The translations under genes were made by a program, and so were the position numbers. From IMG/VR virus record IMGVR_UViG_3300037423_001503: 64,000 nucleotides of DNA; one strand, 5' to 3'. The stretch's first letter is position 1, and the number at the start of each line of letters is the position of its first letter. The notes beneath the pieces are model-generated. The model was not told the DNA's origin, made no database searches, and worked only from the letters and a program-made list of their open reading frames with translations. The DNA comes from a virus. Below are positions 1,591 through 28,059 of the stretch, piece by piece.

Positions 1591-1601
1591 GGGAGCTATC
1601 C

Positions 1602-1736
1602 ATGTCTCAGTCTCACGGCGGTTCGCGTTCGCGCGGCGAGGAATTCGCTGAGTTGGTCTCAGTGATTCTCATCATCGGCGGGATCGCGTTGTGCGTGATC
1701 TTGCCGCTCGTCGAAGTCATCAAGTCCATCATCTAG
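1602..1736 (+). CDS. Small single-TM membrane protein (44 aa)
   Basis: GGGAGCTATCC-ATG; hydrophobic stretch LVSVILIIGGIALCVILPLV. Confidence 0.7.
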   Translation: MSQSHGGSRSRGEEFAELVSVILIIGGIALCVILPLVEVIKSII

Positions 1737-1754
1737 CTCAGGGAGCTATCCAAG

Positions 1755-1994
1755 ATGTTCAACAAGAGCCTCTTCAACCCCAACATCCCCTATCACGGTC
1801 CCGGCGTGTTCGCACTGCCGCTGAACCGGCGTGTCGCCTACGCGGACGAACGGATCGCCCACATCGTCGGCAACGTCGCCAATCGCGAGCGTCTCGGACC
1901 CGTTGTGGTCGTGGACGGCGAGACCTACACCTTCGACGCCTACGCGGAGCTACTCGCCGCCGCCTACCCGGGGCGGAACACCATCAACAACTAG
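1755..1994 (+). CDS. Hypothetical protein
   Basis: Motif-linked RBS, biased codons. Confidence 0.8.
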   Translation: MFNKSLFNPNIPYHGPGVFALPLNRRVAYADERIAHIVGNVANRERLGPVVVVDGETYTFDAYAELLAAAYPGRNTINN

Positions 1995-2085
1995 CGCGTA
2001 GCCGCGCGGGCATCGGGCCAACCGGTGCCCCTGCGAGTGCGAGCTATCCAAGCCGTGCACGACTAGTCCTACAACTACAGGAGCC
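1994..2085 (+). promoter_or_regulatory. Conserved stem-loop element copy 1, followed by GAGCTATCC and GTCCTACAAC-RBS
   Basis: CGCG-TAGC-CGCG-C-GGGCATCGG-gccaa-CCGGTGCCC-C-TGCG-AG-TGCG. Confidence 0.7.
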
Positions 2086-2088
2086 AAC

Positions 2089-2490
2089 ATGCCCACCCGT
2101 TCCGCTGACCGCGAACGTTTCCTCGCCGACATCATCACCACCGCCGTTGAGGGCGGGATCGGCTACTGGTCTCAGGTGTCGTCCTATCGCTGGTGGTCTG
2201 ACCTGATCGGTGGCAGCGGCGGCGCGACGAAGACGTCCGATACCTCCGCCGACGTCCATCCGCTGCTCGACGATGAGTCCGGCTACCGCGACGAAGGTGT
2301 GCACGTTGGGATCGAAGAGGTTGCGCGAGCGCTGGCAGTGCTCCGCAGCGACGCCGTCATCGCTGTCCATCCGACGACACGCGGGCGCATCCTTGAGGCC
2401 GACCGTGCCAACGACGCCGGAGACCTGGATTCCAACGACGCCGACATTGTCGTTCAGGTCGCCGTTCTGGGCGACGTCATCTACGGATAG
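2089..2490 (+). CDS. Hypothetical protein (actinophage-type)
   Basis: CAGGAG RBS; C-terminus DADIVVQVAVLGDVIYG. Confidence 0.85.
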   Translation: MPTRSADRERFLADIITTAVEGGIGYWSQVSSYRWWSDLIGGSGGATKTSDTSADVHPLLDDESGYRDEGVHVGIEEVARALAVLRSDAVIAVHPTTRGRILEADRANDAGDLDSNDADIVVQVAVLGDVIYG

Positions 2491-2522
2491 GGAGCTATCC
2501 AAGTTCTACAACTAGGAGCAAC

Positions 2523-2870
2523 ATGATGCGCTACGCCATCATCTACAACATCACCGCACACACTGCCGAGCGCTACCTGCCCGGCAACTACGCCGTCGTC
2601 TCGATCGGCGACGACGGCAGTGTTCTCATCGCGGGCGAGGACCGCGCGGGCTGGACCCTCGACGACTACGTCCTGCCCCGGCTCGCCTCCGGCCTGTATC
2701 ACGGTCGGGAGGTTCCGCCGCCTCCGCCGTGCTTCGTCCCGAACGCACCCGACGAAATCTGCGACGAGTGCGGCGAGGAACGGCGTGCGCTCATCCATAC
2801 GGACACCACGTTGGACGCGCTCGACGCCGCAGACGGCCTGTACCTGCACCCCTTCAAGTCCTCCAACTAG
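2523..2870 (+). CDS. Hypothetical protein
   Basis: TAGGAG RBS; CxxC. Confidence 0.8.
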   Translation: MMRYAIIYNITAHTAERYLPGNYAVVSIGDDGSVLIAGEDRAGWTLDDYVLPRLASGLYHGREVPPPPPCFVPNAPDEICDECGEERRALIHTDTTLDALDAADGLYLHPFKSSN

Positions 2871-2881
2871 GAGCTATCCCC

Positions 2882-3067
2882 GTGGTCATCCGCATTGTCG
2901 ACAACGCAGACCCGATCGCCGCCGACACCGATGGGCTGCCGATCGACGAGGTGCTCTCGATGGTCGAGAACACCCACGGTGAGGTCATCATCCATGTCCG
3001 CGACGTCGTCGGTCACGTCCACGCGCTGCGCGCCGACCCGGCGCAGCAAGTCCAGGTCTACCACTAG
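2882..3067 (+). CDS. Hypothetical protein
   Basis: TAGGAGCTATCCCC-GTG. Confidence 0.7.
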   Translation: MVIRIVDNADPIAADTDGLPIDEVLSMVENTHGEVIIHVRDVVGHVHALRADPAQQVQVYH

Positions 3068-3076
3068 GAGCTATCC

Positions 3077-3190
3077 ATGCTCGGTCAGTTCTTCATCATC
3101 AAGTGCCCGCGCTGTTCGTCCGAGGCTTGCGTCCGTCGCGGACGCACCGGCGTCTGCGGGCGCGGCCATCACGTCCGCGTCAACCGCTAA
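3077..3190 (+). CDS. Small Cys/His (Zn-ribbon-like) protein, 37 aa
   Basis: TAGGAGCTATCC-ATG; CPRC...CGRGH. Confidence 0.6.
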   Translation: MLGQFFIIKCPRCSSEACVRRGRTGVCGRGHHVRVNR

Positions 3191-3201
3191 CCAAGGACTA
3201 C

Positions 3202-3405
3202 ATGATGCGTCAGCTTTTCCTTGACCCCTACAACGTCGGGGAGCTTCAGCGCTGGCTGGGCTCGTACGCGCCCGACGAGCGGCTCGCGCAGGATCACGAC
3301 AAGGAACTGGTCATCACGGTTCAGGATGACGGTTCACTGCTCCTCGACGGCCGCGACGGGTTCACCGCGGAGGTCACGACGGCGGGAACGTTCATCGCTC
3401 ACTAA
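3202..3405 (+). CDS. Hypothetical protein
   Basis: AAGGA RBS. Confidence 0.75.
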   Translation: MMRQLFLDPYNVGELQRWLGSYAPDERLAQDHDKELVITVQDDGSLLLDGRDGFTAEVTTAGTFIAH

Positions 3406-3417
3406 GGGAGGTTGTTG

Positions 3418-3573
3418 ATGGACTTGCATGACTTGTACTCCATGTCGCTGCGTTGGCACGCCATGGGCGTGGTCGTGGACGCCGCCATCTCGTGCGGTGT
3501 TGGCGACGCCTTCGCCCTCGCCCAATGGGGCGGCTACCTGCCGCTCGACTCGCTCGACGGGGACCGCGCGTAG
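3418..3573 (+). CDS. Hypothetical protein
   Basis: GGGAGG RBS. Confidence 0.6.
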   Translation: MDLHDLYSMSLRWHAMGVVVDAAISCGVGDAFALAQWGGYLPLDSLDGDRA

Positions 3574-3652
3574 CCGCGTCGGCCGGGGTTCGCTCCGGCC
3601 GCTGCGAGTGCGAGCTATCCCACGCACTTCATGTCCTACAACTACCGGAGGT
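3566..3652 (+). promoter_or_regulatory. Conserved stem-loop element copy 2, followed by GAGCTATCC and GTCCTACAAC-RBS
   Basis: CGCG-TAGC-CGCG-TC-GGCCGGGG-ttcg-CTCCGGCC-GC-TGCG-AG-TGCG. Confidence 0.7.
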
Positions 3653-3657
3653 TCTTG

Positions 3658-3825
3658 ATGTCCAAGTCGCAGTCGTTCTCGTCCCTGTCGGCGGCGATGG
3701 GGTACCTGAAGGCGCAGGCTCGCGCGGAGGCGAACGCTGCCGACGTACGGCGCGCCGCGAACCTGCGGCGGTCCGCGTCGATCGCCCGCAAGGCGCCCGG
3801 TACGGGGCCGCGCGTCGCCGCCTAA
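3658..3825 (+). CDS. Small basic Ala/Arg-rich protein
   Basis: GGAGG RBS, ATG at 3658. Confidence 0.7.
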   Translation: MSKSQSFSSLSAAMGYLKAQARAEANAADVRRAANLRRSASIARKAPGTGPRVAA

Positions 3826-3837
3826 CGCCATCGCGAA

Positions 3838-3965
3838 GTAGCCGGTTCGAAGCAGGACCCCGGCGACTAGCCGTCGCGGGCATCGGGTGAGACAATCCGG
3901 TGCCCGGACGAGTAGCCACCGAACCACTGCCGGAGCTATCCAAGTCCTACAACAACCAGGAGCAA
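3838..3965 (+). promoter_or_regulatory. Conserved stem-loop element copy 3 (extended), followed by GAGCTATCC and GTCCTACAAC-RBS
   Basis: GGTTCG...TAGC-CGTC-GC-GGGCATCGGG-loop-TCCGGTGCCC-G-GACG-AG...CGAACC. Confidence 0.7.
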
Positions 3966-3972
3966 CGACACC

Positions 3973-4170
3973 ATGTCGGACACGTATCAGTCTCAGGCCG
4001 CGCGCGACGCCCAGTGCGCCAACTACGGCGGTCCCGCGTACTGCGCGTACCTCGACCGGCATGCGCTCGAACTGCGCGACTACTACATGCGCCACGGCGA
4101 CGAGCTGCTCGCCGCCGCCATGCTGACCCGGTCGCTGAGCGAGGCGCTCGCGGGCAACAACGGCGAATAA
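3973..4170 (+). CDS. Hypothetical protein
   Basis: CAGGAG RBS. Confidence 0.8.
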   Translation: MSDTYQSQAARDAQCANYGGPAYCAYLDRHALELRDYYMRHGDELLAAAMLTRSLSEALAGNNGE

Positions 4171-4196
4171 CAAGACCTACAGCTAGGAGCAACCAC

Positions 4197-4577
4197 ATGT
4201 CCTTGATGGTTAGTATCACCGACGAGCGCGGAGTCGTGCAGGTGTTCGAGCACGACGCCTACCTCGCCGACCATCCGAACGCCGACCTCGTCACGTGCGG
4301 TGCGTGTGGTCACACGTGGGATGACGCCATCGCGACCGCATGGACGCCCGCACCGTCCGGCCGGTGCCCGTTCGAGTACGACCACGCGCACGACGAGCCG
4401 CGCGGTGTGCGCGACTCCTACCTGACCTCGGCGCTGCGTGAGCAGCTTCAGCGCGGCCCCCAGCCCGACGAGGGCTTCTTTCGCTTCAAGGTCACCGGCG
4501 AGGGCGAGACCCAGTGGCTGAACGTGTCGCCTGCTCAGCTTGCGTCGATCATCAACACCCTCAACAACGACAACTAG
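4197..4577 (+). CDS. Hypothetical protein with CxxC...CP motif
   Basis: TAGGAG RBS; TCGACGHTWDD...TPAPSGRCPFEY. Confidence 0.8.
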   Translation: MSLMVSITDERGVVQVFEHDAYLADHPNADLVTCGACGHTWDDAIATAWTPAPSGRCPFEYDHAHDEPRGVRDSYLTSALREQLQRGPQPDEGFFRFKVTGEGETQWLNVSPAQLASIINTLNNDN

Positions 4578-4589
4578 GAGCTATCCAAG

Positions 4590-4880
4590 ATGTCCATCAA
4601 CTCTGACGGCGAGCGCACCGTCCTCACTGACGACGCCTACAAAGAGGCGTTCGGTTGTGGCCGCGCCGCGGCCCGCGAGCACCTCAACAACCTCGAAGGC
4701 GCCTCGCGCAGCGAGGCCCACTACGACGACGTGCGCGAGTCGGTCCACCCGCGGTCGTTCTCAGAGGCGTTGGACGCTCTTGAGGACTTCGCCGCCCTGC
4801 CGATCAGCGAAGCCGTCGATGATGGCATCAACGAGGCGTGGAACGAATTCATCCACGACGTCGCCAACGACTACATCTAG
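4590..4880 (+). CDS. Acidic hypothetical protein
   Basis: Motif-linked RBS. Confidence 0.8.
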   Translation: MSINSDGERTVLTDDAYKEAFGCGRAAAREHLNNLEGASRSEAHYDDVRESVHPRSFSEALDALEDFAALPISEAVDDGINEAWNEFIHDVANDYI

Positions 4881-4889
4881 GACCCCAAC

Positions 4890-5180
4890 ATGCCCAACAC
4901 GGACACCTACAACGGCTGGGCCAACCGCCCGACCTGGAACGTCAACGTCTGGCTTTCCAACGATGAGAGCCTCTACTGGACCGCCCTCGACGTCGTGCGT
5001 GGCTACAAGGAACACACCACCAATTGGTCCGCGAAGGGTGCGGGCCAAGCGTTGCGCGAACTTGTCTTCGCGAACCGCGACGACCGGGGCGGGTTCGGGG
5101 ACCTGAAGCGGACCGAGCTATCCAAGGTCGACTGGACCGCGCTTGGCGCGGCCTGGCTCGAAGACATCATCCACGGATAA
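4890..5180 (+). CDS. DUF7249-like phage protein
   Basis: YNGWANRPTWNVNVWLSNDE signature. Confidence 0.7.
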   Translation: MPNTDTYNGWANRPTWNVNVWLSNDESLYWTALDVVRGYKEHTTNWSAKGAGQALRELVFANRDDRGGFGDLKRTELSKVDWTALGAAWLEDIIHG

Positions 5181-5183
5181 ACC

Positions 5184-5315: not shown

Positions 5316-5324
5316 GACGACAAC

Positions 5325-5525: not shown

Positions 5526-5557
5526 CGAGCTATCCAAGTTCTACATCTAGGAGCAAC

Positions 5558-5803: not shown

Positions 5804-5809
5804 GAGTAC

Positions 5810-6343
5810 ATGATGAACAACGACATCCGCACCGCCGAGGTCGAGGTCTCCGAGGCCCCTGGCGGTCGCGGCGGCTATCACATCGTCCGCTCGCACGGCA
5901 TCGCAGGTACGTGGTGGGCGTGCTCGCGCAGTGGCGACGAGGCCATCTCGATGGCTGTCTACGCGTCGCTGTTCGGGGAGTGCCCGCGCTCGCCGTGGGA
6001 GCCGCCGATGGCACCCAGCGAGGTCGACGGCATGGGGTCGCCGATTGCGGTCTCATGGCGCAGCGAGTCCGACGCGCGAGAGGCCTTTGAGCGCATGGAG
6101 CGCGCGTGGTCGGCGGCCCTGCGGGGGACGCTGGTCGAGCTTCAGTCCTACGCTGAGGAGGATGACTCAGTCGTTCTCACCGACGAGGACTTCGAAGTCC
6201 TCAATCGGGGCGGCCACATCAGTCTCCCCGACGGGCGCGTCGTCATCGACGGTCTCGATTGCTGCGCGCATGTCCTGACGCCGGGCACCTACTGGGGCGC
6301 GGACGGCAACTGCTACGAGGTCCCCACCAAGGTCACCAACTAG
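5810..6343 (+). CDS. Hypothetical protein
   Basis: TAGGAG RBS. Confidence 0.8.
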   Translation: MMNNDIRTAEVEVSEAPGGRGGYHIVRSHGIAGTWWACSRSGDEAISMAVYASLFGECPRSPWEPPMAPSEVDGMGSPIAVSWRSESDAREAFERMERAWSAALRGTLVELQSYAEEDDSVVLTDEDFEVLNRGGHISLPDGRVVIDGLDCCAHVLTPGTYWGADGNCYEVPTKVTN

Positions 6344-6460
6344 ATGTTCTCGCGCCTCATCATCTGGCTTCTCGACCGCTACGTCGTCGGCGACTACGAG
6401 GCCAAGCACTCCGAGTACGAGACGATCCACGATCGACTCGAATCCGACCACACCAACTAG
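6344..6460 (+). CDS. Hypothetical protein, 38 aa
   Basis: TAG-ATG junction. Confidence 0.55.
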   Translation: MFSRLIIWLLDRYVVGDYEAKHSEYETIHDRLESDHTN

Positions 6461-6473
6461 GAGCAACAACCCC

Positions 6474-6761
6474 ATGGACTCGATCAAGTTCCAGGCCATT
6501 TCAACCGAGGTCAGTCGCGCCCTCGCAGCCGATGTGGTGGCGGTGTTCGACCTGCCCAACGAGGACGGCCTCAACCCGGGCGCGATCGTGGCGTGGTCGT
6601 CGCGGGAGCGTCCGACGCACGGAACGCACCTCGCCGTGGTGCCGCCCGACGCGCGCGCCTACGTCATCAACGGCGTCTACGACTTCGCGGAGCCCATCGA
6701 TGCGGTCAGCGACGCCTACCATCGCTGGCTGCGTCGCGTGAGCCCGGACGCCGCCGGATGA
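6474..6761 (+). CDS. Hypothetical protein
   Basis: TAGGAG RBS. Confidence 0.8.
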   Translation: MDSIKFQAISTEVSRALAADVVAVFDLPNEDGLNPGAIVAWSSRERPTHGTHLAVVPPDARAYVINGVYDFAEPIDAVSDAYHRWLRRVSPDAAG

Positions 6762-6769
6762 GCTATCCA

Positions 6770-6964
6770 ATGCGACGACTGCCCAGCGATGAGCTACTCG
6801 AAGAGGCCCGGCGGCTCGACCGCGAGCACGGCGGGCGTTTCGATCGCGAGCGAGGCGAACTGATCAGCAAGGCCTACAGCTTGAAGGCCGAGGCTCATCG
6901 GCTCGGCCGCTCCGGCGCGTTCGACGACCTGAACGCTGTCGGCTTCTTCCACGTTCGGCCCTAA
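6770..6964 (+). CDS. Hypothetical protein
   Basis: GAGCTATCC-A-ATG. Confidence 0.7.
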   Translation: MRRLPSDELLEEARRLDREHGGRFDRERGELISKAYSLKAEAHRLGRSGAFDDLNAVGFFHVRP

Positions 6965-6990
6965 CTACTTCAACAACTAGGAGAACACAA

Positions 6991-7284
6991 GTGAACACCA
7001 ACAACGGCGGCAAGGACAGGACGTATTTCGCACGCGATCCCTACGGATCGGAGCGCACAGCCTTCGACCCGTCGCGCTCACGTTTCGCCATCTACGTTGT
7101 GGGTCACGAGCCCAACGAAGAGGACGGCTGGCGCTACAAGCTCAGCGTCATCGACTACAAGTACAACGACAGCGACGCCTACCCCATCGATGCCATCGCA
7201 GGCGGCAACTCATGGTCCGAGGCGTTCGCACGGGCGGCCGAGATGGTCGAGCACGCGCTCGCCGCCGACCACTGCATCTTCTAG
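6991..7284 (+). CDS. Hypothetical protein
   Basis: TAGGAG RBS, GTG start. Confidence 0.8.
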   Translation: MNTNNGGKDRTYFARDPYGSERTAFDPSRSRFAIYVVGHEPNEEDGWRYKLSVIDYKYNDSDAYPIDAIAGGNSWSEAFARAAEMVEHALAADHCIF

Positions 7285-7298
7285 GACAAGAGAGCACC

Positions 7299-7496
7299 AT
7301 GCCCAGCATCATTTACTTCACCGACGAGGTGCCCGGTCTCGGCGACCACGTCGTGGTCAGGGAGAGTCCCGCCGACGTGGCGCACCTGCTTCGTGTCGCC
7401 GCCCGCAATGACCGGCCGTCGATCCGCGTCACCATCGGCGGCGAGCCCGCCCACCTGCCGGTCCGCCTCGTCGGACCGGTTCTCACCGTTCAGTAA
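7299..7496 (+). CDS. Hypothetical protein
   Basis: ORF in operon. Confidence 0.7.
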   Translation: MPSIIYFTDEVPGLGDHVVVRESPADVAHLLRVAARNDRPSIRVTIGGEPAHLPVRLVGPVLTVQ

Positions 7497-7512
7497 GAAA
7501 GGAACACCAACC

Positions 7513-7641
7513 ATGGCCCGCAAGACCGGCGCTCTCCGCGCCAACCACATCAACTCGGCCGACGCTCGCGACGCCCAGCGTCAGCGACGCCGCTCTCAGC
7601 GAGAGCGCGACCGCGTCAGTCCGCGACGCCGGAACGCCTGA
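7513..7641 (+). CDS. Small Arg-rich protein
   Basis: GAAAGGA RBS. Confidence 0.65.
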   Translation: MARKTGALRANHINSADARDAQRQRRRSQRERDRVSPRRRNA

Positions 7642-8024
7642 TGCCCGAGTACATCAACATCGCGCCGACCGGCCTCTACAACGCCGCCCTGCGTCGGCAG
7701 GGCATCCGCCTCAAGGCCGTGGAGCGCGACGGCCAGGTCGGCCTTGAGTCCACCGAGGACGGCGAGACCGTCGCGGAGCAGATCCAGGACCTGGTCAACC
7801 GGGTTGTGCTGCTCGACCAGGCGGTCGGCTTCGTCATCGCCTCGAACACTGCTCGGCTCGCAGAGGCGGCGCGCGACCTCCGCAGCGCCTTCGCTGGCGG
7901 CGGCCTGACCCTCGATGACGCATGGGGCGGGGACGACGATCTCGACGACATGATCGCCGTCATCGAGGGCGCGACCAAGAACATCAACAACATCATCCGC
8001 GAGGAGGGGCGCGTCGGACACTGA
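7641..8024 (+). CDS. Hypothetical protein
   Basis: TGATG coupling. Confidence 0.8.
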   Translation: MPEYINIAPTGLYNAALRRQGIRLKAVERDGQVGLESTEDGETVAEQIQDLVNRVVLLDQAVGFVIASNTARLAEAARDLRSAFAGGGLTLDDAWGGDDDLDDMIAVIEGATKNINNIIREEGRVGH

Positions 8025-8041
8025 CCGGCGAGCTATCCAAG

Positions 8042-8386
8042 ATGAAGGTCTACTCAAACACACTGACCATCAACGACCTCAACGTGGCGGCACACGAGGT
8101 TCGTGACGCTACCGGCGACGCCCTCTACGTGGGCGATGCCATCACGATTCCGCGCGCGCGGGTCCGACGGAACGGGTTCAACGTGCGGCTGACGAACTTC
8201 GACAGCCGTCGCGCCCGCAACACCGGCACCCACGGCGGCGCGAGAGGTGACGATCCGGCCGCGTCGTGGGATGATTACGGCCGATGGATCGCCCGCCTCT
8301 TCGTGCGGGACCCATCGGCACGGATCGCGCACTACGACGGGGCCGCCGATTTCCACGCCAAGACCAACAACAAGTACAACGTTTAG
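8042..8386 (+). CDS. Hypothetical protein
   Basis: Motif-linked start; AASWDDYGRWIARLF. Confidence 0.8.
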   Translation: MKVYSNTLTINDLNVAAHEVRDATGDALYVGDAITIPRARVRRNGFNVRLTNFDSRRARNTGTHGGARGDDPAASWDDYGRWIARLFVRDPSARIAHYDGAADFHAKTNNKYNV

Positions 8387-8395
8387 GGCACCAAC

Positions 8396-8656
8396 ATGCC
8401 GACCACGCAACAACTACAACATGCGCGCGACGACCTGCGGCGGCTAGCGAGAGTCATCAACCACGCGGCCGACGAGTTGCACTTCGCTTCGTTGTCGTCA
8501 CTGACCATCGACCGCAACCCCAACGACGACAACTTGCGAGACGATCAGCGCCGCTCAATCGACCTCCACGTCGCGACCGCGCGCGGCGTCATCGAGATTC
8601 AGCCGCTCCTGTACGCGGAGACGCTATTCACGCTTCTATCCAAGCACGGACTCTAG
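8396..8656 (+). CDS. Hypothetical protein
   Basis: ORF in operon. Confidence 0.7.
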   Translation: MPTTQQLQHARDDLRRLARVINHAADELHFASLSSLTIDRNPNDDNLRDDQRRSIDLHVATARGVIEIQPLLYAETLFTLLSKHGL

Positions 8657-8666
8657 GACCCCCAAC

Positions 8667-9140
8667 ATGCCCATCGACGCAGAGACCCTCATCGATCGCG
8701 AAGCTCACCGGTCGATCTCGTTGTGGCCGGACAGCCTGCACTGGCTGAGTGAACCCGACCCCGCTGACGTGATCCGCGCCTGCCGCAAGGCCGCCGCCGA
8801 CCACGACGGGCGCGATGTCTACGCCGAGCCTCTCGCCGACGTCGCCTACATCGTCACCGACGACTACAACGGCGTCACCGAGTCCCATGACCGCATCGAG
8901 TGCGTCAAGCAGCGCCTCGCCGCCCTCCGGGGCCGCCGCGAGTTCGTGGGGTTACTGCCCTACTACCCGTCCTGCAAGGGGTGGATCACATGCCGTGTCG
9001 TTGGTTGCCAGCCGCCTGATCCCGTCTACGGAAAGGACGAGAAGTATGCGCTCACCGTCCGCTATGCCAGCGATGGTGCGCTCGCCTGCTACGGCATCCC
9101 TGTCGACCAGACCCAGCCGCCTCGCTGCTACTGGGACTGA
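8667..9140 (+). CDS. Hypothetical protein
   Basis: TAGGA RBS. Confidence 0.75.
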   Translation: MPIDAETLIDREAHRSISLWPDSLHWLSEPDPADVIRACRKAAADHDGRDVYAEPLADVAYIVTDDYNGVTESHDRIECVKQRLAALRGRREFVGLLPYYPSCKGWITCRVVGCQPPDPVYGKDEKYALTVRYASDGALACYGIPVDQTQPPRCYWD

Positions 9141-9143
9141 AAC

Positions 9144-9410
9144 ATGCCAAACAACTCCATCATCTACGTCAGCGACGCCGACGGCTGGCGCGTCATCCGA
9201 CTCAACCCGCTCGACTTTCAGGTCGAGCGGCATTACGAAGACACCGATCACGTGGACTCGGCCCGGCTCAGCCTCGCCGGAACAGGACGCAACCATGTGC
9301 GGCGCCTCGACATTGTCGCGGGAACGCTTCACGATCAGTACCAAATCCCTGCCGCCGTGTACGAGGCAGTGTGGCACTCGATCACGCACGGCCTCGGCAT
9401 CAAGCTCTAG
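9144..9410 (+). CDS. Hypothetical protein
   Basis: ORF in operon. Confidence 0.75.
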   Translation: MPNNSIIYVSDADGWRVIRLNPLDFQVERHYEDTDHVDSARLSLAGTGRNHVRRLDIVAGTLHDQYQIPAAVYEAVWHSITHGLGIKL

Positions 9411-9953: not shown

Positions 9954-9966
9954 GAGGAGCTATCCA

Positions 9967-10173
9967 ATGGACAACAGGTACATCATCTTCATGGTCAGCA
10001 CGCGACTGACCAACGACCGCAGCGACATCGCGCTCGTCAAAGCGATTGACCGCGAGGAGGCCAAGCGCCTTGCGTTCCCCTATCTGGGGCAGCACGCCGA
10101 CAACTATGAGGTGACGCCGCTGACGCGCCCCAACGACCTCGTCACCGTCGACATCCCCAACAAGATCAACTAG
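9967..10173 (+). CDS. Hypothetical protein
   Basis: GAGGAGCTATCC-A-ATG. Confidence 0.75.
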   Translation: MDNRYIIFMVSTRLTNDRSDIALVKAIDREEAKRLAFPYLGQHADNYEVTPLTRPNDLVTVDIPNKIN

Positions 10174-10182
10174 GACATCAAC

Positions 10183-10545
10183 ATGTACAACGCATTCGTC
10201 ATCTACGACGACCGAGTCGAAGAGGTCGAGCTTCCCGAGCGCGGTACCTTGGAGGCGCTTCAGGGCATCGTCGGCGGTCACATCGAGGCCGTGCCGGTCC
10301 CGCCGTTCCTGAACGGCGCGCCGCGCGCTACCTGCTATGTCAACGAAGACGGCAAGTACGCCTGCGCGCCCAACATGGCCGCCACGGACTTCATGGTGCC
10401 CGGCATGGGGCTCTTCATGGGGGACTACATCGCCGGTCCGCTCGTCATCGTCGGCTTCGATCCCGAGACCGGCGAGCACACACCGACGCTGCCCGGCGAC
10501 GTCGTGCGCCGCATCAACGTCATCAACAAGGAGGCGTTCGGATGA
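10183..10545 (+). CDS. DUF3846-domain protein
   Basis: LEALQGIVGGHIEAV...VNEDGK...N..AT...IAGPLVIVG. Confidence 0.8.
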   Translation: MYNAFVIYDDRVEEVELPERGTLEALQGIVGGHIEAVPVPPFLNGAPRATCYVNEDGKYACAPNMAATDFMVPGMGLFMGDYIAGPLVIVGFDPETGEHTPTLPGDVVRRINVINKEAFG

Positions 10546-10829
10546 GCCTCAGTGGGGGCGTCGAGCGGCGAATCACGCTGCTCGACGTGTTGTTCAAGCG
10601 TCACCTGTCCGAGCAGGAGGTGAAGCTGCTGCCGGGATGGTCGCTGCGCGTGACCGTCGGTCCGATCGAGATGTGTCTCGATGACCTCGGTTGGCACAAG
10701 TGGCGCTGGGACATTGGTCCCGGATTCGCGCTTTGGGCGTGTGGCTTCGTCTTCGAAATCGCGCCTTCTGGGGAGACGTTCGAGCGCATCTATGTCGGCG
10801 ACGCGGAAGCTTTGGATCCGAGACGATGA
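10542..10829 (+). CDS. Hypothetical protein
   Basis: GGAGG RBS, ATGA overlap. Confidence 0.7.
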   Translation: MSLSGGVERRITLLDVLFKRHLSEQEVKLLPGWSLRVTVGPIEMCLDDLGWHKWRWDIGPGFALWACGFVFEIAPSGETFERIYVGDAEALDPRR

Positions 10830-11122
10830 AGACCTACAACTACAGACCTGTCGTCCTCATCTACATCTCAGGCGACGCCTACGGCGGTGAGCCCCATGCA
10901 TGGCCCGGCACCGGCGACCCCATCGTTGTCGTCTATGACGGCGGCCGGTACGACAAGTACAACTCCAACCCAGGCGACAACCCGCTCGACGACTACGCGC
11001 ATGCGCTCCGGCTGCTGCGAGGTCGCGCCGCTGGGCGGATGTTGCGTTCTTGGTGCGAGGGCGACGCAGAGTTCCTGAGCGAACGCTACGAAGAAGAGGA
11101 CTACAGCTATGAACCGTCTTGA
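10826..11122 (+). CDS. Hypothetical protein
   Basis: ATGA overlap. Confidence 0.7.
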   Translation: MKTYNYRPVVLIYISGDAYGGEPHAWPGTGDPIVVVYDGGRYDKYNSNPGDNPLDDYAHALRLLRGRAAGRMLRSWCEGDAEFLSERYEEEDYSYEPS

Positions 11123-11267
11123 CCTACTGGCGTTGACGTTCGTCGCGCCGTCGCACCCGTGCGTCGGCCGGATCGTCGTCAGCGACATGAACAACGTTTC
11201 GTTCATCCTGGCCGTCGCGGCCGGGCACTACCACGACACCGAAGGAGAGACCCAGAATGGCCGTTGA
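11109..11267 (+). CDS. Hypothetical protein
   Basis: GAGGA RBS; bridges neighbouring genes. Confidence 0.5.
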   Translation: MNRLDLLALTFVAPSHPCVGRIVVSDMNNVSFILAVAAGHYHDTEGETQNGR

Positions 11268-11885: not shown

Positions 11886-12083
11886 ATGAGCAGACGAGTG
11901 CGCATCGAGGTCACCGAGTTCTACAACATCGAGATCGGTGACGAAAACGACGGCACCGACGCTGTCCTGGAACTCGACGAGATGGACTCCGACGACCGCG
12001 CCGCGCTCTATCAGGAGCGCACGATCAAGGTCTTCGACGACAGCACTGGCGAAGAGTTGCCGGTCGATCGGACGGTCGTCTGA
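11886..12083 (+). CDS. Small acidic protein
   Basis: AAAGGG RBS. Confidence 0.75.
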   Translation: MSRRVRIEVTEFYNIEIGDENDGTDAVLELDEMDSDDRAALYQERTIKVFDDSTGEELPVDRTVV

Positions 12084-12277
12084 TGGCGACCAAGTACGAT
12101 GCCTACGTAGAGGCCATCAACCGCGCCGACGAGGCCATGCAGGAAGCGCTGCGTGTCCTGCCGCCCGACGCAAGCGAGCTATCCGTGCTGGTCACGAACG
12201 GAACGTTCCGTGACGTCCGCGCGACGCTCACGATGGCCTACGGGCTTCAGAGTGAGGCCCAGGATGGGGCTCGCTGA
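12083..12277 (+). CDS. Hypothetical protein
   Basis: TGATG coupling. Confidence 0.7.
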   Translation: MATKYDAYVEAINRADEAMQEALRVLPPDASELSVLVTNGTFRDVRATLTMAYGLQSEAQDGAR

Positions 12278-13837: not shown

Positions 13838-13847
13838 GGAGCTATCC

Positions 13848-14988: not shown

Positions 14989-15309
14989 ATGTCCCAGAAG
15001 ATCAAGAACAACAAGTCGCACCGTCCCGGCCAGCCCAACCCCTACGTGGAGCGCAGCCTCGACATCCTGACCCGCCTGTGCGCGGCCAACACCCCGCAGA
15101 CGCGCGCCGCGCTCGGGCTGTCGCAGTTCCGCGCCGAGGGCATGCTGGAGAACAAGCTCATCAAGCGCGTCGCGGTGCGCTACACGGGCACCGCGGGTCG
15201 GCCGGCGTACCTGTACGAGCCGACGGCGAAGGCCCGCCGGGCGGTTGAGGACCGGCTGCGCTCGGGCCGCATCGTGCGCCGTGGCCGCAGGCTGGTGGTG
15301 GCGAAGTGA
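14989..15309 (+). CDS. Basic winged-HTH-like DNA-binding protein
   Basis: LIKRV...GRPAYLYEPT wing motif; very high GC3. Confidence 0.6.
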   Translation: MSQKIKNNKSHRPGQPNPYVERSLDILTRLCAANTPQTRAALGLSQFRAEGMLENKLIKRVAVRYTGTAGRPAYLYEPTAKARRAVEDRLRSGRIVRRGRRLVVAK

Positions 15310-15476: not shown

Positions 15477-15489
15477 GGGGAGCTATCCA

Positions 15490-16818: not shown

Positions 16819-16821
16819 TCG

Positions 16822-16856
16822 CGGCCCGGTCCTCGCCGACCGGGTCGTTTTTATTT
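16822..16856 (+). terminator. Intrinsic terminator
   Basis: GCGGCCCGGTC-loop-GACCGGGTCGT followed by TTTTATTT. Confidence 0.8.
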
Positions 16857-16866: not shown

Positions 16867-16912
16867 TGTCAAGTACTATAACTTGACATCTCTGCGGAGG
16901 GTTTGCTAGGTT
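16867..16912 (+). promoter_or_regulatory. SigA-type promoter with an inverted-repeat operator over the -35 box
   Basis: TTGACA(16883)-N18-TAGGTT(16907); TGTCAAG-N8-CTTGACA palindrome. Confidence 0.7.
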
Positions 16913-16918
16913 CGTGGA

Positions 16919-17020
16919 GAACACGCGGCCGGTCCTTTGGCCCGCTCGGCCGCCGTGGACACCAGCGGCCCGGAGGTTCCGCATAAGGGGATAGGCATGC
17001 GGGGCCTCCGGGTAGTAATT
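16919..17020 (+). ncRNA. Candidate small RNA or structured leader (two hairpins)
   Basis: 16-bp stem 16969-16984/16997-17012 with loop AAGGGGATAGGC, directly downstream of the promoter. Confidence 0.4.
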
Positions 17021-17175: not shown

Positions 17176-17502
17176 ATGATCACCCTCAGCGAGCTATCCA
17201 GCGCCGCGCGCGCCAACGACCACCTCGCCGCCGCGGGCGTGCCGCTGGACGAGATCCTCATTGACTTGAATCTTGAGCCAAGCTCATTGATCCGCGCTGC
17301 TGAGCAAAGGGCGCTGCGGGTCGCGCTGCTCCACGACGGCTGGTCAGAGCTTGAGATCGACGCCCTTGGCGGGCTGATCCAGCCCCGGACGGTGCGCGTC
17401 GAGGAAGCGACGAACTTCTGGATGCCCACGTTCACCGCGTTGGTCATCGACGGCGCGGCCATGATTCGCCGGGCCGAGCGCGAGTTCTCCTCTCGCGCCT
17501 AA
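17176..17502 (+). CDS. Hypothetical protein
   Basis: ATG at 17176, coding-like composition. Confidence 0.7.
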   Translation: MITLSELSSAARANDHLAAAGVPLDEILIDLNLEPSSLIRAAEQRALRVALLHDGWSELEIDALGGLIQPRTVRVEEATNFWMPTFTALVIDGAAMIRRAEREFSSRA

Positions 17503-23497: not shown

Positions 23498-23805
23498 GCC
23501 CGGCCATCACACCCGACGAGGCCTTCTCGAAGGCCGCCGAAGGCCAACACATACCCAACGAAGTCTTCGAAGTCTTCAACGAATTGATCGTCAAGAACCT
23601 CCGAGATGGTAAGGCGCGTATCCAGCAGGATGAGGCGGTCACGATGATTGAGGCGCGTATGACCGTGCAGCGGCAAGACATCTACGGCAACCGGTGGCTC
23701 GACGTAGAGGACGCCTACCGCGCCCAGGGCTGGGCCGTCGATTACGACAAGCCCGCCTACAACGAGACACACTCAGCAACCTTCACCTTCAGGAGATCCA
23801 CGTGA
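23494..23805 (+). CDS. Conserved phage protein
   Basis: WLDVE..YR..GW.V.YDKPAYNE. Confidence 0.8.
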   Translation: MSPAITPDEAFSKAAEGQHIPNEVFEVFNELIVKNLRDGKARIQQDEAVTMIEARMTVQRQDIYGNRWLDVEDAYRAQGWAVDYDKPAYNETHSATFTFRRST

Positions 23806-24029
23806 CCGACATCCTCGCTGAGCGCGAGCTATCCCTGCGGCGGCATCTGAAGACCATCAATCCGACCTGGGCCGCCTACTACGTCGGTGTCGCCGAGGAG
23901 GCCATCGCCGCCGCCGAGGCCGGCGAGGACGAATTCAAGATTGCCCTGCCGGGCGGTCGGTCGGTCACAGCCGAGAACGTGATCTCCGCGTTCTCGCTCA
24001 GCGGTTTCGTCGGAGGCGATGATGACTAG
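23802..24029 (+). CDS. Hypothetical protein
   Basis: AGGAG RBS, GTGA overlap. Confidence 0.7.
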   Translation: MTDILAERELSLRRHLKTINPTWAAYYVGVAEEAIAAAEAGEDEFKIALPGGRSVTAENVISAFSLSGFVGGDDD

Positions 24030-25515: not shown

Positions 25516-25720
25516 AGGTCTACGTGGCCTTCCACAGAGGTGAGTTCTTTTCGGCCACGACGTGCCGCCGGGACCGAGTTCGTTCGTCGGTGTCTACGTG
25601 ACGCGCGAGGAGGCGCTACGACGATGCTGGCCTGAAGGCGACTCGCGCTTCGTCGAGGAGCGCGAGCTTGAGCCTGCTCACGAGGAAGAGCAGTCGTTAC
25701 CGCAATGGAACTTCCCTTGA
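25512..25720 (+). pseudogene. Frameshifted paralog of the N-terminus of 24991..25515
   Basis: VKVYVAF then, after a shift at TTCTTTTC, FVGVYVTREEAL...EERELEP; compare MKVYAAY...FVGMYSTYAKAL...EFEIEP. Confidence 0.55.
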
Positions 25721-25745
25721 CATCAAGCCGCGACTAGGCTAGGTT
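25717..25745 (+). promoter_or_regulatory. SigA-type promoter (leaderless)
   Basis: TTGACA-N17-TAGGTT-N6-ATG. Confidence 0.75.
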
Positions 25746-25751
25746 CATGGC

Positions 25752-25964
25752 ATGACGCCGGAGCGCGCCTTCCATCTGTTCGGAGACGTGCTCTCGAACC
25801 GTGACATCAGGATCTTCTCGCGCAGTGATCTCGCCCACGGACGTGTGTGGTTCGTCCACGCTACCGTCGGCGATGAGACGCGCGAGGTGTTCCAGACCAA
25901 CGATCCCCGCCTGGCGGCGCGCTGGCGCGAAACCTACACACGACTGGAAAGGAACGCTCAGTGA
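25752..25964 (+). CDS. Hypothetical protein
   Basis: Leaderless ATG. Confidence 0.7.
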   Translation: MTPERAFHLFGDVLSNRDIRIFSRSDLAHGRVWFVHATVGDETREVFQTNDPRLAARWRETYTRLERNAQ

Positions 25965-26305
25965 AGAAGAGAATCTTCAAATACTCGCTTGAGGTCGAGC
26001 CGCGCCAGATGCTTCATCTTCCGGCAGGCGCAGAGCTTCTCTCGGTGATCGCCGACGCCCTCGGACCGAAGCTGTACGCGCTCGTGGACCCAGAGGCGTC
26101 GGCCGAGCCGCGCATCCTACGCACAGTCGTTGCCGGCGAGGTCGTCGAAGGGGATGCGCTCGGCGCCTACATCGGAACCTACGTGGTCGGTGAGGGGCGC
26201 TTCATCGGCCATCTGTTCGAGCAGGCAGTCGGTGTCGGCGACGAACGCGATCGACGTTGGGACGCCGATATGGCTGACCTGCGGCGGGAGTTGGTGGCCT
26301 CGTGA
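25961..26305 (+). CDS. DUF7352-like protein
   Basis: IFKY.L...LPAGAELLSV...LYALVDP...YIGT...HLFE. Confidence 0.75.
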   Translation: MKKRIFKYSLEVEPRQMLHLPAGAELLSVIADALGPKLYALVDPEASAEPRILRTVVAGEVVEGDALGAYIGTYVVGEGRFIGHLFEQAVGVGDERDRRWDADMADLRRELVAS

Positions 26306-26856
26306 GCGGGCTCCCACTCCGGCAACGAAACGCAGGCCGGGTCTGGGACCTGACCGGCGTCCACGGATCACCGACGCGGATGCGTCTCGCCAATGGCCAT
26401 GGTCCGCAGTTGCCGCGGGCAGAGGAGCGGATCACCGTGGTCGAGGTTGGCTCTTGGCGGGCCGTCTGGGTGGCGCTGCGCGCCGTCGTTTCGGGCCAGG
26501 ACAGCCAGGCCGGAGGGCGAGCGATGAAGGTGTTGGCAGGCCGCTTGAGCGACGCGGATCGCAGGATCATCTTCGAATCGAACGAGTCGGGGCGGCCCGT
26601 CCTGATCGCGACGCTCGACGCCACGGTGACCTACGACCAGCGGCGCCCGACGCCGTACGACGTAGCCCCGATGCAGGCAGTCGGCGTGGCGAAGACCTGG
26701 GATCACGGCTACGTCGAGCTTGGCGGCTGGTCGTTCACGACGCGCATCCCATGGACGTCGATCGTTGCCGTGTGGTGGCGGGATGAGGCGCCCAGCGCAC
26801 CGGACGTCGCCGCCCGGATCGCCGAGTTCCAATCGGACACGTTGGCCGAAAAGTGA
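26302..26856 (+). CDS. Hypothetical protein (true start may be 26523)
   Basis: GTGA overlap; internal GGAGGG-ATG. Confidence 0.55.
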   Translation: MSGLPLRQRNAGRVWDLTGVHGSPTRMRLANGHGPQLPRAEERITVVEVGSWRAVWVALRAVVSGQDSQAGGRAMKVLAGRLSDADRRIIFESNESGRPVLIATLDATVTYDQRRPTPYDVAPMQAVGVAKTWDHGYVELGGWSFTTRIPWTSIVAVWWRDEAPSAPDVAARIAEFQSDTLAEK

Positions 26857-26863
26857 GCGCTAC

Positions 26864-27025
26864 ATGATCTGGGTAGCCGTCACGGCGCTGGCGTGCCACA
26901 ACGCCTATCTGCTTAGGAAAATTCACCAATCAAATCTACGGATCGACACAACCTGGGACGCGTGGCGATCCGACATCCCGTTGCTCAGGCGGCGCGTTGC
27001 GCGGCTGATTCGCAAGGAGGGCTAA
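26864..27025 (+). CDS. Small membrane-associated protein
   Basis: Hydrophobic N-terminus. Confidence 0.5.
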   Translation: MIWVAVTALACHNAYLLRKIHQSNLRIDTTWDAWRSDIPLLRRRVARLIRKEG

Positions 27026-27029
27026 ACCT

Positions 27030-27293
27030 GTGCATGACAGACGCTGGAATTCCACCACAGTCACTGTGACGCTCTACTGGGACGGCTTCACCGACCACGA
27101 CATTGAGGTACTCGAAGATCTCGACTTCGCGGTCCTCAAGGAGGGCAAGTATTTGGTTCTAGAGCGCACCGTGAACGGAAACTGCGACGCAGTCGCCAAC
27201 GCCGGCATGGTCCTGCGCGACGTCGAAGACGCGCTCGTAGATCTCTATCTCAGCGTCTTTGATGTGTCGGTCGTGTCGAGAAAGGGCGCGTGA
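27030..27293 (+). CDS. Hypothetical protein
   Basis: AAGGAGG RBS. Confidence 0.7.
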   Translation: MHDRRWNSTTVTVTLYWDGFTDHDIEVLEDLDFAVLKEGKYLVLERTVNGNCDAVANAGMVLRDVEDALVDLYLSVFDVSVVSRKGA

Positions 27294-27378
27294 TGGTCTT
27301 CGTTGCGTTGGTTTTGGTAGTGCTCTTTGTTGCCCTCTTCTGCGGACTGCTTGTCGCGATGATCGATCGGATGTCGTG

Positions 27379-28059
27379 ATGCTTCCCGACGACCTCATCG
27401 AGCGCCTTCGATCCGGCGATGACCCGCTCCACATGGCGAAGAAGCTGCTTCGCGCGGGGCATGATCTCGGGCAGCACACCAAGAGCGTCGCCAACTGCCA
27501 CGTCATCGGTCTCGACTCGATCGTGCTCTTCGATTTCGGCGAACACGGCATGATCCGCTACTACGACTACTCGATGCTCGACGGGTCGCTCAGCAGCCTC
27601 TACAACGAGGACGGTGGCTTCACGATCGGTGTGCACAACCACCGCTACGAGATCGCCAAGATCCCCCTCATCGGTAGCTACGCCAACGTCGTAACTGCGA
27701 TCGACGAGACCGATGGACGCGGCCGGATGCTGCTACACGAGTACGAGTTCTCGTCCGGCATCGGAGGCGAGCTAGGGGTCACGTATCGCGACGCACGCCT
27801 GATGCGGCCCTTCGATGTCGAGGTCATGATGCCCGGCTCGTCGGTAATCATGCAGCCCGAGGATCTCCACACCGTTGTCGTGCCGCGCCGTCAGCGCGCC
27901 GCTTGGATGGTGATCGAGGGCTCGCGACGCGATGACATCACGCCGCTGCTGTACTCGCCGACCCGGGACCTTGTCCTCAACTCAGATCATCTCTACCAAC
28001 CCATTGCCGGGCGCGCCAAGTCGGCGATCGGCAAGCTCATTGAGGAGCTATCCGAGTGA
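27379..28059 (+). CDS. Cupin-fold-like protein
   Basis: VHNHRY...MQPEDLHTV metal-binding pattern. Confidence 0.6.
   Translation: MLPDDLIERLRSGDDPLHMAKKLLRAGHDLGQHTKSVANCHVIGLDSIVLFDFGEHGMIRYYDYSMLDGSLSSLYNEDGGFTIGVHNHRYEIAKIPLIGSYANVVTAIDETDGRGRMLLHEYEFSSGIGGELGVTYRDARLMRPFDVEVMMPGSSVIMQPEDLHTVVVPRRQRAAWMVIEGSRRDDITPLLYSPTRDLVLNSDHLYQPIAGRAKSAIGKLIEELSE

Follow-up and report, generated by a model that had tools for sequence, protein, structure and literature searches.

In phage T4, the GGAG of early-gene Shine-Dalgarno (SD) sequences is the target of the RegB endoribonuclease and RegA acts at translational operators, and both proteins inactivate early mRNAs at or near ribosome-binding sites (RBSs), sometimes within genes. 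Stoperators are found on both genome arms, are degenerate and subcluster-specific, and occur in temperate phages whose repressor is known. In phage L5 and cluster A mycobacteriophages they are 13-bp asymmetric sites bound by the repressor gp71 (cited in PMC3203893). Cluster K mycobacteriophages carry start-associated sequences (SAS; 5'-GGGATAGGAGCCC) and extended SAS (ESAS) (Pope et al. 2011; PMC3203893). The SAS tolerates up to two deviations and lies nearly always 3–9 bp from a start, with 6 of 125 in ORFs, and in the ESAS a 17-bp inverted repeat lies upstream and includes a SigA-like promoter (PMC3203893). The function of the SAS was still called unknown in 2024–25 (PMC11373665, PMC12699233).

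The window, a 64-kb stretch of DNA, spans positions 32001–96000 of a 139,534-bp phage record (G000), and coordinates below refer to the window unless stated otherwise. Counting both strands, we found 20 exact copies of the word GAGCTATCC on the + strand and none on the − strand, and the full 139,534-bp record held no copy on either strand outside 1593–28053 (33.6–60.1 kb of 139.5 kb in genome coordinates). Fourteen of the 20 lie before 10 kb and none beyond 28,053, vs a mean of 0.38 copies and a maximum of 3 in dinucleotide shuffles. One-mismatch variants numbered 8 forward and 6 reverse, which is no more than background and makes the word in effect invariant in this genome. The initial annotation had reported 20 copies, all on the + strand, with 14 before 10 kb and none past 28.1 kb; this enrichment, polarity and confinement to the early block were recovered at exactly the same coordinates, and the confirmed observation is larger in extent than first noted. 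The copies and associated hairpins are given below, with reference to G001, the closest phage, and G011, a relative without the word.

1593..1601, + strand: motif copy, 0 nt to ATG 1602 (44-aa ORF)
1743..1751, + strand: motif copy, 3 nt to ATG 1755; G001 has an orthologous copy
2008..2030, + strand: 9-bp hairpin 5' of copy 2041; cassette GTAGCC-hairpin-GAGTGC-motif
2041..2049, + strand: motif copy, hairpin type, 39 nt to ATG 2089 with its own SD between
2492..2500, + strand: motif copy, 22 nt to ATG 2523; then relic AAG-TTC-TAC-AAC-TAG and SD
2871..2879, + strand: motif copy, 2 nt to GTG 2882
3068..3076, + strand: motif copy, 0 nt to ATG 3077 (37-aa Cys-rich ORF); G001 homology on the right flank only
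3580..3601, + strand: hairpin 5' of copy 3612
3612..3620, + strand: motif copy, hairpin type, 37 nt to ATG 3658
3878..3905, + strand: hairpin 5' of copy 3933
3933..3941, + strand: motif copy, 31 nt to ATG 3973
4578..4586, + strand: motif copy, 3 nt to ATG 4590 (0 nt in G001)
5115..5123, + strand: intragenic copy, frame 0, codon 76/96 of gene 4890–5180; same in G001
5527..5535, + strand: motif copy, 22 nt to ATG 5558; paralogue of the 2492 cassette
6760..6768, + strand: motif copy overlapping the TGA of 6474–6761, 1 nt to ATG 6770
8030..8038, + strand: motif copy, 3 nt to ATG 8042; the G011 orthologue has a hairpin cassette there
9957..9965, + strand: motif copy, 1 nt to ATG 9967
12176..12184, + strand: intragenic copy, frame 0, codon 32/64 of gene 12083–12277; same in G001
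13839..13847, + strand: motif copy, 0 nt to ATG 13848 (2 nt in G001)
15480..15488, + strand: motif copy, 1 nt to ATG 15490; G001 without a copy at the matching site
17191..17199, + strand: intragenic copy, frame 0, codon 6 of gene 17176–17502; same in G001, flanks diverged
23826..23834, + strand: intragenic copy, frame 0, codon 9 of gene 23802–24029; same in G001
28045..28053, + strand: intragenic copy, frame 0, codon 223/226 of gene 27379–28059; possible GTG 28056; same in G001

Fresh gene calls reproduced the earlier division into 15 junction and five intragenic copies. Ten of the 15 intergenic copies end 0–3 nt 5' of a start codon and provide the sole GAG or GGAG of its RBS, and the other five end 22–39 nt ahead of the start with a separate SD between. 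Each of the five intragenic copies reads in frame as GAG-CTA-TCC, as had been claimed, with the rare CTA making up 9% of Leu codons in this genome. Hairpins stand ahead of 3 of the 20 copies only (2041, 3612, 3933), and the copy at 4578..4586 forms the right edge of a cassette variant found in soil populations. The copy at 28045 is located three codons ahead of the stop and 2 nt 5' of the possible GTG start, and an in-frame GTG comes after the copy at 12176.

A search of related phages for polarised copies recovered nine further IMG/VR phages with the identical word in the same polarity, at 3–21 copies each (forward/reverse counts 21/0, 6/1, 16/0, 6/1, 12/0, 11/0, 12/0, 10/0 and 3/0). These relatives have replication and virion genes in common with G000, including those for the DNA polymerase, SNF2 helicase, terminase, capsid, portal and tape measure proteins. 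Their DNA polymerase identity to this phage ranges from 91% down to ~40%, and in every one of them the copies are found in a small-gene block ahead of the replication genes; in outgroups with 22–27% polymerase identity, GAGCTATCC is at background. The word stays constant in phages of 54–68% G+C. The nearest GenBank phages show at most 29% capsid identity, and the carriers are a new family of uncultured soil phages. Such family-wide invariance greatly strengthens the case for a dedicated recognition site, which, as initially claimed, would be the best reading of the word. Its core is AGCTATCC, with G, sometimes C, before it and usually A after it. Among the 93 copies of eight non-redundant genomes, 22 adjoin a start codon, 42 are intragenic and 18 have a separate canonical SD downstream of them; the association with starts described at the outset thus holds for half of the copies here and is not a defining feature in the family. 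Some sense-strand copies are placed 0–10 nt 5' of canonical SD sequences, and others follow the last + strand gene, just before converging minus-strand islands.

In-frame Glu-Leu-Ser is written GAG-CTA-TCC in 32 of 99 cases across the family, vs 1.2 expected, and in 5 of 18 in this genome, vs 0.23 expected under a codon-aware null, which was thereby rejected. None of the five intragenic copies differs between G000 and G001, two phages whose conserved E, L and S codons show synonymous difference rates of 0.21, 0.38 and 0.38, and pairwise comparison of G006, G013 and G014 found the copy kept in 8 of 9 cases (~0.17 expected). Intragenic copies are unchanged between orthologues though flanking synonymous sites have diverged, and one-mismatch variants in the family are at background, except for G-to-C at position 1. 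The synonymous-site and codon tests agree in indicating that the word is maintained by purifying selection on nucleotides, beyond RBS function, as the initial annotation had argued. An invariant one-strand word, present even in genes, would mark a putative regulator site and not a mere RBS.

Like the SAS, GAGCTATCC is a short asymmetric word present in 11–20 copies, in one orientation and in the non-structural arm only; many copies sit just 5' of starts with an SD-like core, some come after inverted repeats or hairpins, and they are linked to unrelated genes across relatives. However, the sequence differs (GAGCTATCC does not match GGGATAGGAGCCC within 2 deviations), the word is exact here, many copies are 5' of a separate SD, and the rule that virtually all lie near a start fails both here (10/20) and in the family (22/93). 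Three copies here follow hairpins, a search for promoter-like hexamer pairs found none, and these phages, with their distant capsids, are unrelated to cluster K. Since only about a quarter of the family copies adjoin a start and nearly half are intragenic and selected, the word is, judging from its placement, neither a plain RBS nor a plain SAS of the cluster K type. With stoperators it shares dispersed asymmetric sites in one orientation, in short intergenic spaces overlapping stop/start and in some genes, but the sites here are limited to the early block, exact and invariant across deep divergence, and no repressor or integrase was among the families listed by Pfam and PHROGs (217 predicted proteins, of which PHROGs covers the first 108; best 25 families per listing). 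The T4 RegB/RegA targets are comparable in that the tag occurs mainly at early-gene RBSs, occasionally in genes, and is rare in late genes (absent from them here), so that early mRNAs could be inactivated selectively. They differ in comprising only 4 nt plus context, and neither RegB nor RegA has a homologue among the families listed in the same annotation, though a non-homologous analogue may exist; the RNA-level action in this phage is one that we infer. Two analogies offered earlier fit weakly. Promoter-early stem-loop (PeSL) elements of T4-type phages are likewise repeats between small early genes, at mosaic boundaries, but here no promoter is present, hairpins accompany three copies only and copies also occur in genes. 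Chi/KOPS sequences have the same strict strand polarity, but the copies here are limited to a fifth of the genome and not spread over the replicon.

We tentatively favour reading GAGCTATCC as a strand-specific tag on early genes for shut-off or processing, with action at the RNA level. One sequence-specific factor, guided by the word, would act on early genes only and give timed shut-off or processing of their expression, with recognition on early transcripts as for the T4 RegB nuclease or RegA repressor. The half of the copies here that also serve as SD GAG plus spacer would represent cheap placement and not the primary function. We infer from the sequence data a trans-acting factor, a reading of RNA over DNA and a negative or processing effect. 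In favour of the RNA-level reading, this phage carries many genes for RNA handling and a weak match to RNase P RNA. Against it, the families listed include no known type of nuclease or RNA-binding protein that tracks the motif, and, to our knowledge, exact recognition of 8–9 single-stranded RNA bases is unusual for a protein. Predicted single-strandedness in RNA is no higher for the motif than for the same word placed at random nearby, no conserved structure was found around it, and a search for antisense RNA to the motif found none. G011 has the same early block and orthologues of motif-linked genes, without GAGCTATCC, and carries ten hairpin cassettes with a T-loop-like (tRNA-like) loop at early-gene junctions; this cassette plausibly acts in RNA. 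A more specific proposal, which we consider improbable, makes the word the target of a very specific RNA-level system on early polycistronic transcripts, whether an endoribonuclease dedicated to it or cutting directed by a guide. Such a system would punctuate or destroy those transcripts, and in the G011 lineage tRNA-like hairpins processable by RNase P-type enzymes would be functionally interchangeable with the tag. This would link the tag to the unusually many tRNA and RNA-processing genes of the family.

Every positional feature fits a polar DNA-binding site as well, and we favour the RNA-level reading over a stoperator-like roadblock, a serious but doubtful contender in which a phage-encoded protein would bind the 9-bp site as a monomer and, depending on its orientation, stop transcription elongation across the early block, as gp71 of phage L5 does at its stoperators. 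The word is compact and asymmetric (9–10 bp), is accompanied by no second element between −60 and +40, keeps a single orientation relative to transcription, occurs in short intergenic spaces and in genes, and ends + strand gene runs before converging genes, and RNA accessibility is without signal. Canonical host-type promoters and one strong terminator stand apart from it, and the motif is therefore no promoter in its own right. On the other hand, operator sets are normally degenerate and drifting, while all 93 copies of this word are exact, in phages with polymerases only ~40% identical; copies are not genome-wide as in cluster A phages; and a family-wide helix-turn-helix protein was found neither among the shared proteins nor, like a repressor or integrase, among the families listed. 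Exactness typical of enzyme recognition, strict single-strand polarity and constancy across the G+C range, which suits a conserved enzyme, would also agree with a polar DNA-metabolism signal, either Chi-like against a host exonuclease from the early end or a T5/phiKMV-type nick site. Copy density peaks at the start of the block and then declines, Pfam/PHROGs list several HNH endonuclease genes in this phage, and RBS and Glu-Leu-Ser placement could be the cheapest embedding of the word. We nonetheless hold this signal to be unlikely, as the copies span only about one fifth of the genome and known Chi sites are 5–8 nt and G-rich.

The start-adjoining copies, with their sole GAG/GGAG here and likewise in G001, G003 and G008, recall an extended RBS equivalent to the cluster K SAS that would boost or tune translation initiation via the ribosome itself, and a bipartite GGAG...AUCC is predicted to pair with the 16S rRNA tail GGAUCACCUCC at −10.1 kcal/mol. 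Yet 34% of all GGAG+N6 match that tail equally or better, which leaves no special fit; position 1 of GAG is the one tolerant position; and from G000 to G001 the motif-to-start spacing shifts among 0, 2, 3 and 27 nt. Given the few start-adjoining copies, those upstream of a separate SD and the intragenic selection, this function as the sole one is largely refuted and its probability is slight. Equally slight is that of a promoter or transcript-start mark, with leaderless or short-leader mRNAs beginning right after the word. Distances to the start codon form two groups in the family (0–5 and 20–26 nt), of 60 copies 34 are followed by A and one by T, and no canonical TTGACA-N17-TAnnnT promoter occurs in the initial 17 kb of the early block; but the word lacks a −35 partner and a suitably spaced −10-like TAnnnT, canonical promoters occur in between copies in G003 and G007, nearly half of the copies lie in genes far from the next start, and no phage RNA polymerase or sigma factor is among the families listed for this phage. 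Least credible is a functionless relic, a shared junction of shuffled cassettes copied by recombination. G000/G001 homology often begins or ends at a copy, C-terminal relic tails (AAG-NNC-TAC-AAC-TAG) follow copies 2492 and 5527 with a third after the TAA stop at 4168–4170, and the soil-population variant has a joint ending in the motif. The selection tests contradict it, however: copying fails to explain exact synonymous-site conservation in orthologues, the same word stands beside unrelated genes in the most distant relatives, and decayed copies are absent.

Among the readers proposed in the initial annotation, the DGQHR protein (438 aa, 17877) is a poor candidate, with a detectable relative only in G001, and the wHTH proteins at 14989 and 20911 are absent from the proteins common to at least four relatives, whereas the motif is family-wide. 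That the early segment is the first to be injected, as the initial annotation also proposed, is a conjecture: the linear 139,534-bp record has no terminal repeats, and an 86-nt 'terminal repeat' in G008 was rejected as a tandem 12-mer array. A single scan of a genome collection gave no host.

An exact count of the 9-mer GAGCTATCC returned 20 copies on the + strand of the window and none on the - strand, at all 20 of the + strand coordinates listed in the initial annotation, against a dinucleotide-shuffle expectation with a mean of 0.38 and a maximum of 3. The remainder of the 139,534-bp record outside the window contained no copy on either strand, and this full-record count bears out the earlier claim that the word is absent from the - strand and from sequence beyond the early region. 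One-mismatch variants occurred at chance level in this genome (eight forward, six reverse), indicating an exact word and not the commonest form of a degenerate set. With gene calls from a self-trained codon model, ten of the 20 copies end 0-3 nt ahead of a start codon, where the word provides the only GAG or GGAG; five sit 22-39 nt 5' of a start codon with a separate Shine-Dalgarno (SD) sequence in between, three of them preceded by a stable hairpin; and five are intragenic, every one reading GAG-CTA-TCC (Glu-Leu-Ser). This is the same split of 15 intergenic and five intragenic copies as had been described.

In the genome under study, a leftward block with about 25 tRNA genes is followed by a 2.5-kb non-coding gap. 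The rightward block opens about 1.4 kb before the window with dozens of small function-unknown genes and continues with the replication genes (SNF2 helicase, AEP primase, DnaB/RecA-like ATPase and family A DNA polymerase) and then the terminase, the virion genes lying on the opposite strand. The gap between the diverging blocks (genome 28.0-30.5 kb; 8020-10560 of L070, the stretch left of the window) contains many short direct repeats (GCGCGTCTCACG, AAAGAGCGAAC and CAATGACATTGACT) and could represent an origin or genome-end region. A tRNA-like T arm lies immediately 5' of the first rightward gene, where ARAGORN called a tRNA-Ala (L070 10447-10525). Canonical TTGACA-N16-18-TAnnnT promoters were observed only from window position 16883 on, just past a strong terminator; the first 17 kb of the early block, which covers all 15 intergenic and two intragenic copies, yielded none.

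Transcription signals in the window
16821-16848: strong intrinsic terminator closing the first 17 kb
16883-16912, 17636, 19717, 25717, 35179, 36777 and 39993: TTGACA-N16-18-TAGGNT promoters, recurring through the middle region

Relatives were found by a polymerase search, a two-copy pattern scan of IMG/VR (two copies 140-170 nt apart) and a polymerase-profile scan. Most matches from the single 16-mer and two-copy pattern scans were discarded as chance hits or tandem repeats, the latter scan also yielding new phage contigs.

Copies of the word in relatives (whole record, forward/reverse)
G001, from the polymerase search: 139.9 kb, polymerase 91% identical, 21 copies on a single strand
G003, from the polymerase search: 56.7-kb fragment, polymerase 75% identical, 6/1
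G006, G007 and G008, from the two-copy pattern scan: 16/0, 6/1 and 12/0
G012, G013, G014 and G016 (a fragment), from the polymerase-profile scan: 0/11, 12/0, 10/0 and 0/3

The motif-bearing phages have polymerase, helicase, terminase, capsid, portal and tape measure proteins in common with the genome under study, the polymerase identity of distant members to it being about 40-62%, and all members carry their copies in the small-gene block preceding the replication genes, on its coding strand. In outgroups with 22-27% polymerase identity the word was at background. Among GenBank phages there was no near-DNA match to the genome under study and no close relative of any family member, the best capsid and helicase matches being mycobacteriophages at 26-30% identity. 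What was called an 86-nt "direct terminal repeat" in G008 consists of tandem copies of the 12-mer GAGCCCTGCGGC and, after these, ACCGACCGAGGCCGC repeats, so this call may reflect no more than an assembly break within a tandem repeat. A literature search for the 9-mer matched only unrelated primers and tRNA sequences; by these matches the complement GGAUAGCUC equals nucleotides 5-13 of tRNA-Phe/tRNA-Lys3-type tRNAs, and GAGCUA complements the tRNA segment U8-C13, which is widely conserved. None of the phage tRNAs contains the 9-mer, and the likeness of its complement to tRNA positions 5-13 may be coincidence.

The integration of gene calls across the family yielded a placement tally of 93 copies.

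Placement of 93 copies in eight non-redundant genomes
22 of 93: ending 0-5 nt before a start codon
18 of 93: 6-60 nt upstream of a start codon, clustering at 20-26 nt and usually 0-10 nt before a canonical SD
42 of 93: intragenic, with frames distributed 32:6:4
11 of 93: elsewhere, including + strand copies directly after the last + strand gene and ahead of a minus-strand gene run

This placement indicates that the word is not defined by start codons and that it is oriented with the block, whichever way the local gene runs; between the genome under study and G001, its closest relative listed, the motif-to-start spacing changes from 0 to 27, 3 to 0 and 0 to 2 nt. The intragenic frame bias is highly non-random against equal thirds. 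The frame-0 excess is marginal (p = 0.04) against the approximately 62% expected from the tripeptides encoded per frame, a figure that is our own rough residue-frequency estimate rather than a tool output, Glu-Leu-Ser being by far the most tolerable tripeptide that the word can encode; since the excess is only marginal, we did not count it as evidence of a translational role.

Selection on the nucleotides themselves was pronounced. Across the eight non-redundant genomes, 32 of 99 in-frame Glu-Leu-Ser occurrences are spelled GAG-CTA-TCC, against 1.2 expected from genome codon usage, and in the genome under study alone the word accounts for five of 18, against 0.23 expected. Conserved codons compared between this genome and G001 differ synonymously at 21% of Glu, 38% of Leu and 38% of Ser positions, and all five intragenic copies are nevertheless identical, for which the chance is roughly 0.3^5, about 0.003. 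In the far more diverged G006, G013 and G014, eight of nine pairwise orthologous comparisons keep the word (about 0.17 expected), and the codons flanking the kept intragenic copies carry synonymous changes in each case. The rejection of the codon-aware null and the orthologue test together uphold the proposal that selection acts on the nucleotides beyond ribosome-binding function. In still more distant members the intragenic copies occupy different sites, indicating that individual copies are gained and lost but that the sequence of the word does not change. A sense-strand excess of one-mismatch variants was found only at position 1 (G to C, 16 vs. 6), the only tolerant site, which leaves AGCTATCC as the core. 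The flanks are little informative (the preceding base is rarely A; the next base is A in 34 of 60 and T in 1 of 60), and no second element, a -35 partner included, was found within -60 to +40 of the copies. Sequence comparison thus indicates a genuine recognition site, under selection and specific to one strand, that tags early genes in a new family of phages.

A relative lacking the motif, G011 (89.8 kb, polymerase 55% identical), has an equivalent early block that includes orthologues of window genes 4890, 8042 and 12083, and its one copy of the word lies within an unrelated 2071-codon gene. Each of ten early genes in G011 has in front of it a cassette of about 65 nt (minus strand of G011 80001-89773, about 5870-9340 of that stretch), consisting of an 11-bp hairpin, GCTGCGCTAGG-TTCGATC-CCTAGCGCAG, about 20 nt, and a strong SD, GAAAGGGTGAG, before the ATG. 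The 7-nt loop UUCGAUC and its closing pairs resemble a tRNA T arm; ARAGORN and Rfam called no tRNA in the cassettes, which look like tRNA-style operon punctuation and like an RNA-level element. Gene 8042 is preceded by the word in the genome under study and by the cassette in the G011 orthologue, suggesting that word and cassette may do one and the same job where early genes adjoin.

Among known systems, the word comes closest to the start-associated sequences (SAS) of cluster K mycobacteriophages and the stoperators of cluster A phages; it lacks a feature that defines SAS and one that defines stoperators and so belongs to neither, though it is of the same general kind. Tentatively, we favor the reading in which the word would be an RNA-level tag for early-gene shut-off or processing, by analogy with T4 RegB/RegA. 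The argument is indirect and comes from the RNA-like cassette of G011, from the many RNA-handling genes and from a weak RNase P RNA match. The genome is unusually rich in translation and RNA-repair genes, carrying, besides its approximately 25 tRNAs, a CCA-adding enzyme, RtcB, RNA ligase, RlaP, Thg1, the peptidyl-tRNA hydrolase PTH2 and an RF-1 domain protein, and the match to bacterial RNase P RNA class A (genome 22521-22824, L070 2521-2824, minus strand) is full-length at 28 bits, below the cut-off of 100, with E = 7e-7 locally. A stoperator-like DNA roadblock is a serious alternative that we consider somewhat unlikely, and a polar signal of DNA metabolism, Chi-like or a nick site, appears improbable. 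A pure enhancer of ribosome binding is very improbable: split pairing with the 16S rRNA 3' tail is predicted, yet 34% of GGAG+N6 sequences, about a third of random spacers, pair equally well or better. Just as improbable is a mark of transcript starts, against which stand the lack of a partner element, the ordinary promoters interspersed with motif copies in G003 and G007, and the finding of no phage RNA polymerase or sigma factor among the Pfam and PHROGs families listed for the 217 predicted proteins. Of the two largest function-unknown proteins, the 1874-aa one is the tape measure and the 902-aa one is tail-like. To a passive relic of gene junctions we give hardly any credence.

Several specific partners of the word were also rejected. 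A cis tRNA-like or acceptor-like stem showed no excess of upstream motif complements, the GTAGCC...motif closing stem being confined to three paralogous hairpin cassettes. For a trans antisense RNA, no non-coding stretch offered at least seven complementary bases even with G-U pairs, and none was conserved. The hairpin loop GGAUAG (window 16867-17020) has a homologous hairpin with a different loop in G001, though G001 keeps 21 copies. Real copies were no more accessible in RNA than in-silico insertions, and no conserved pairing partner was found in the RNA around them. A phyletic profile for the reader, the putative factor recognizing the word, revealed no discriminating protein; the best candidate, of 117 aa at window 42005, does not discriminate, as it has a homologue in the motif-less G011. 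In the G006/G013/G014 subclade, inverted repeats TGTGAC-N4-6-GTCACA occur within about 45 nt of several copies, on either side, and may be an operator for a dimeric regulator.

TGTGAC-N4-6-GTCACA repeats
G006: around 64250-64830
G013: around 6800 and 68270
G014: around 58600

To our knowledge, dispersed one-strand repeats are known from two groups of actinophages, with a mechanism established for stoperators only, and we know of no function settled for SAS since 2011. With the word, an uncultured phage family provides a third and independent case, and the assets of the word are that it stays letter-perfect at only about 40% polymerase identity, that intragenic selection is demonstrable, and that G011 provides a natural "knock-out" with hairpin cassettes. 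The family therefore offers a clean comparative system in which to identify the readers of such tags and to study how early genes are shut off or processed in large lytic phages, and in metagenomic contigs the word is a simple marker of the early region, its orientation and family membership.

Recombination at the repeated junctions seems to happen, as judged from mosaic boundaries at copies, relic gene tails and a cassette variant from soil, and in our view it results from the repeats and is not what they are for. The relic tails, AAG-NNC-TAC-AAC/AGC-TAG, lie at window 2501-2515, 5536-5550 and 4171-4187, behind either a copy of the word or a genuine stop codon; the ending Lys-x-Tyr-Asn-stop is shared by several intact early genes, and the tails suggest deletions through recombination between repeated junctions. 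In contigs from four soil/rhizosphere runs, the cassettes at 4173-4590, 9969-10182 and 10205-11241 are skipped or replaced, and where 4173 is joined to 4590 there is an insertion of 22 letters with the motif at its end, the arrangement also seen in G001.
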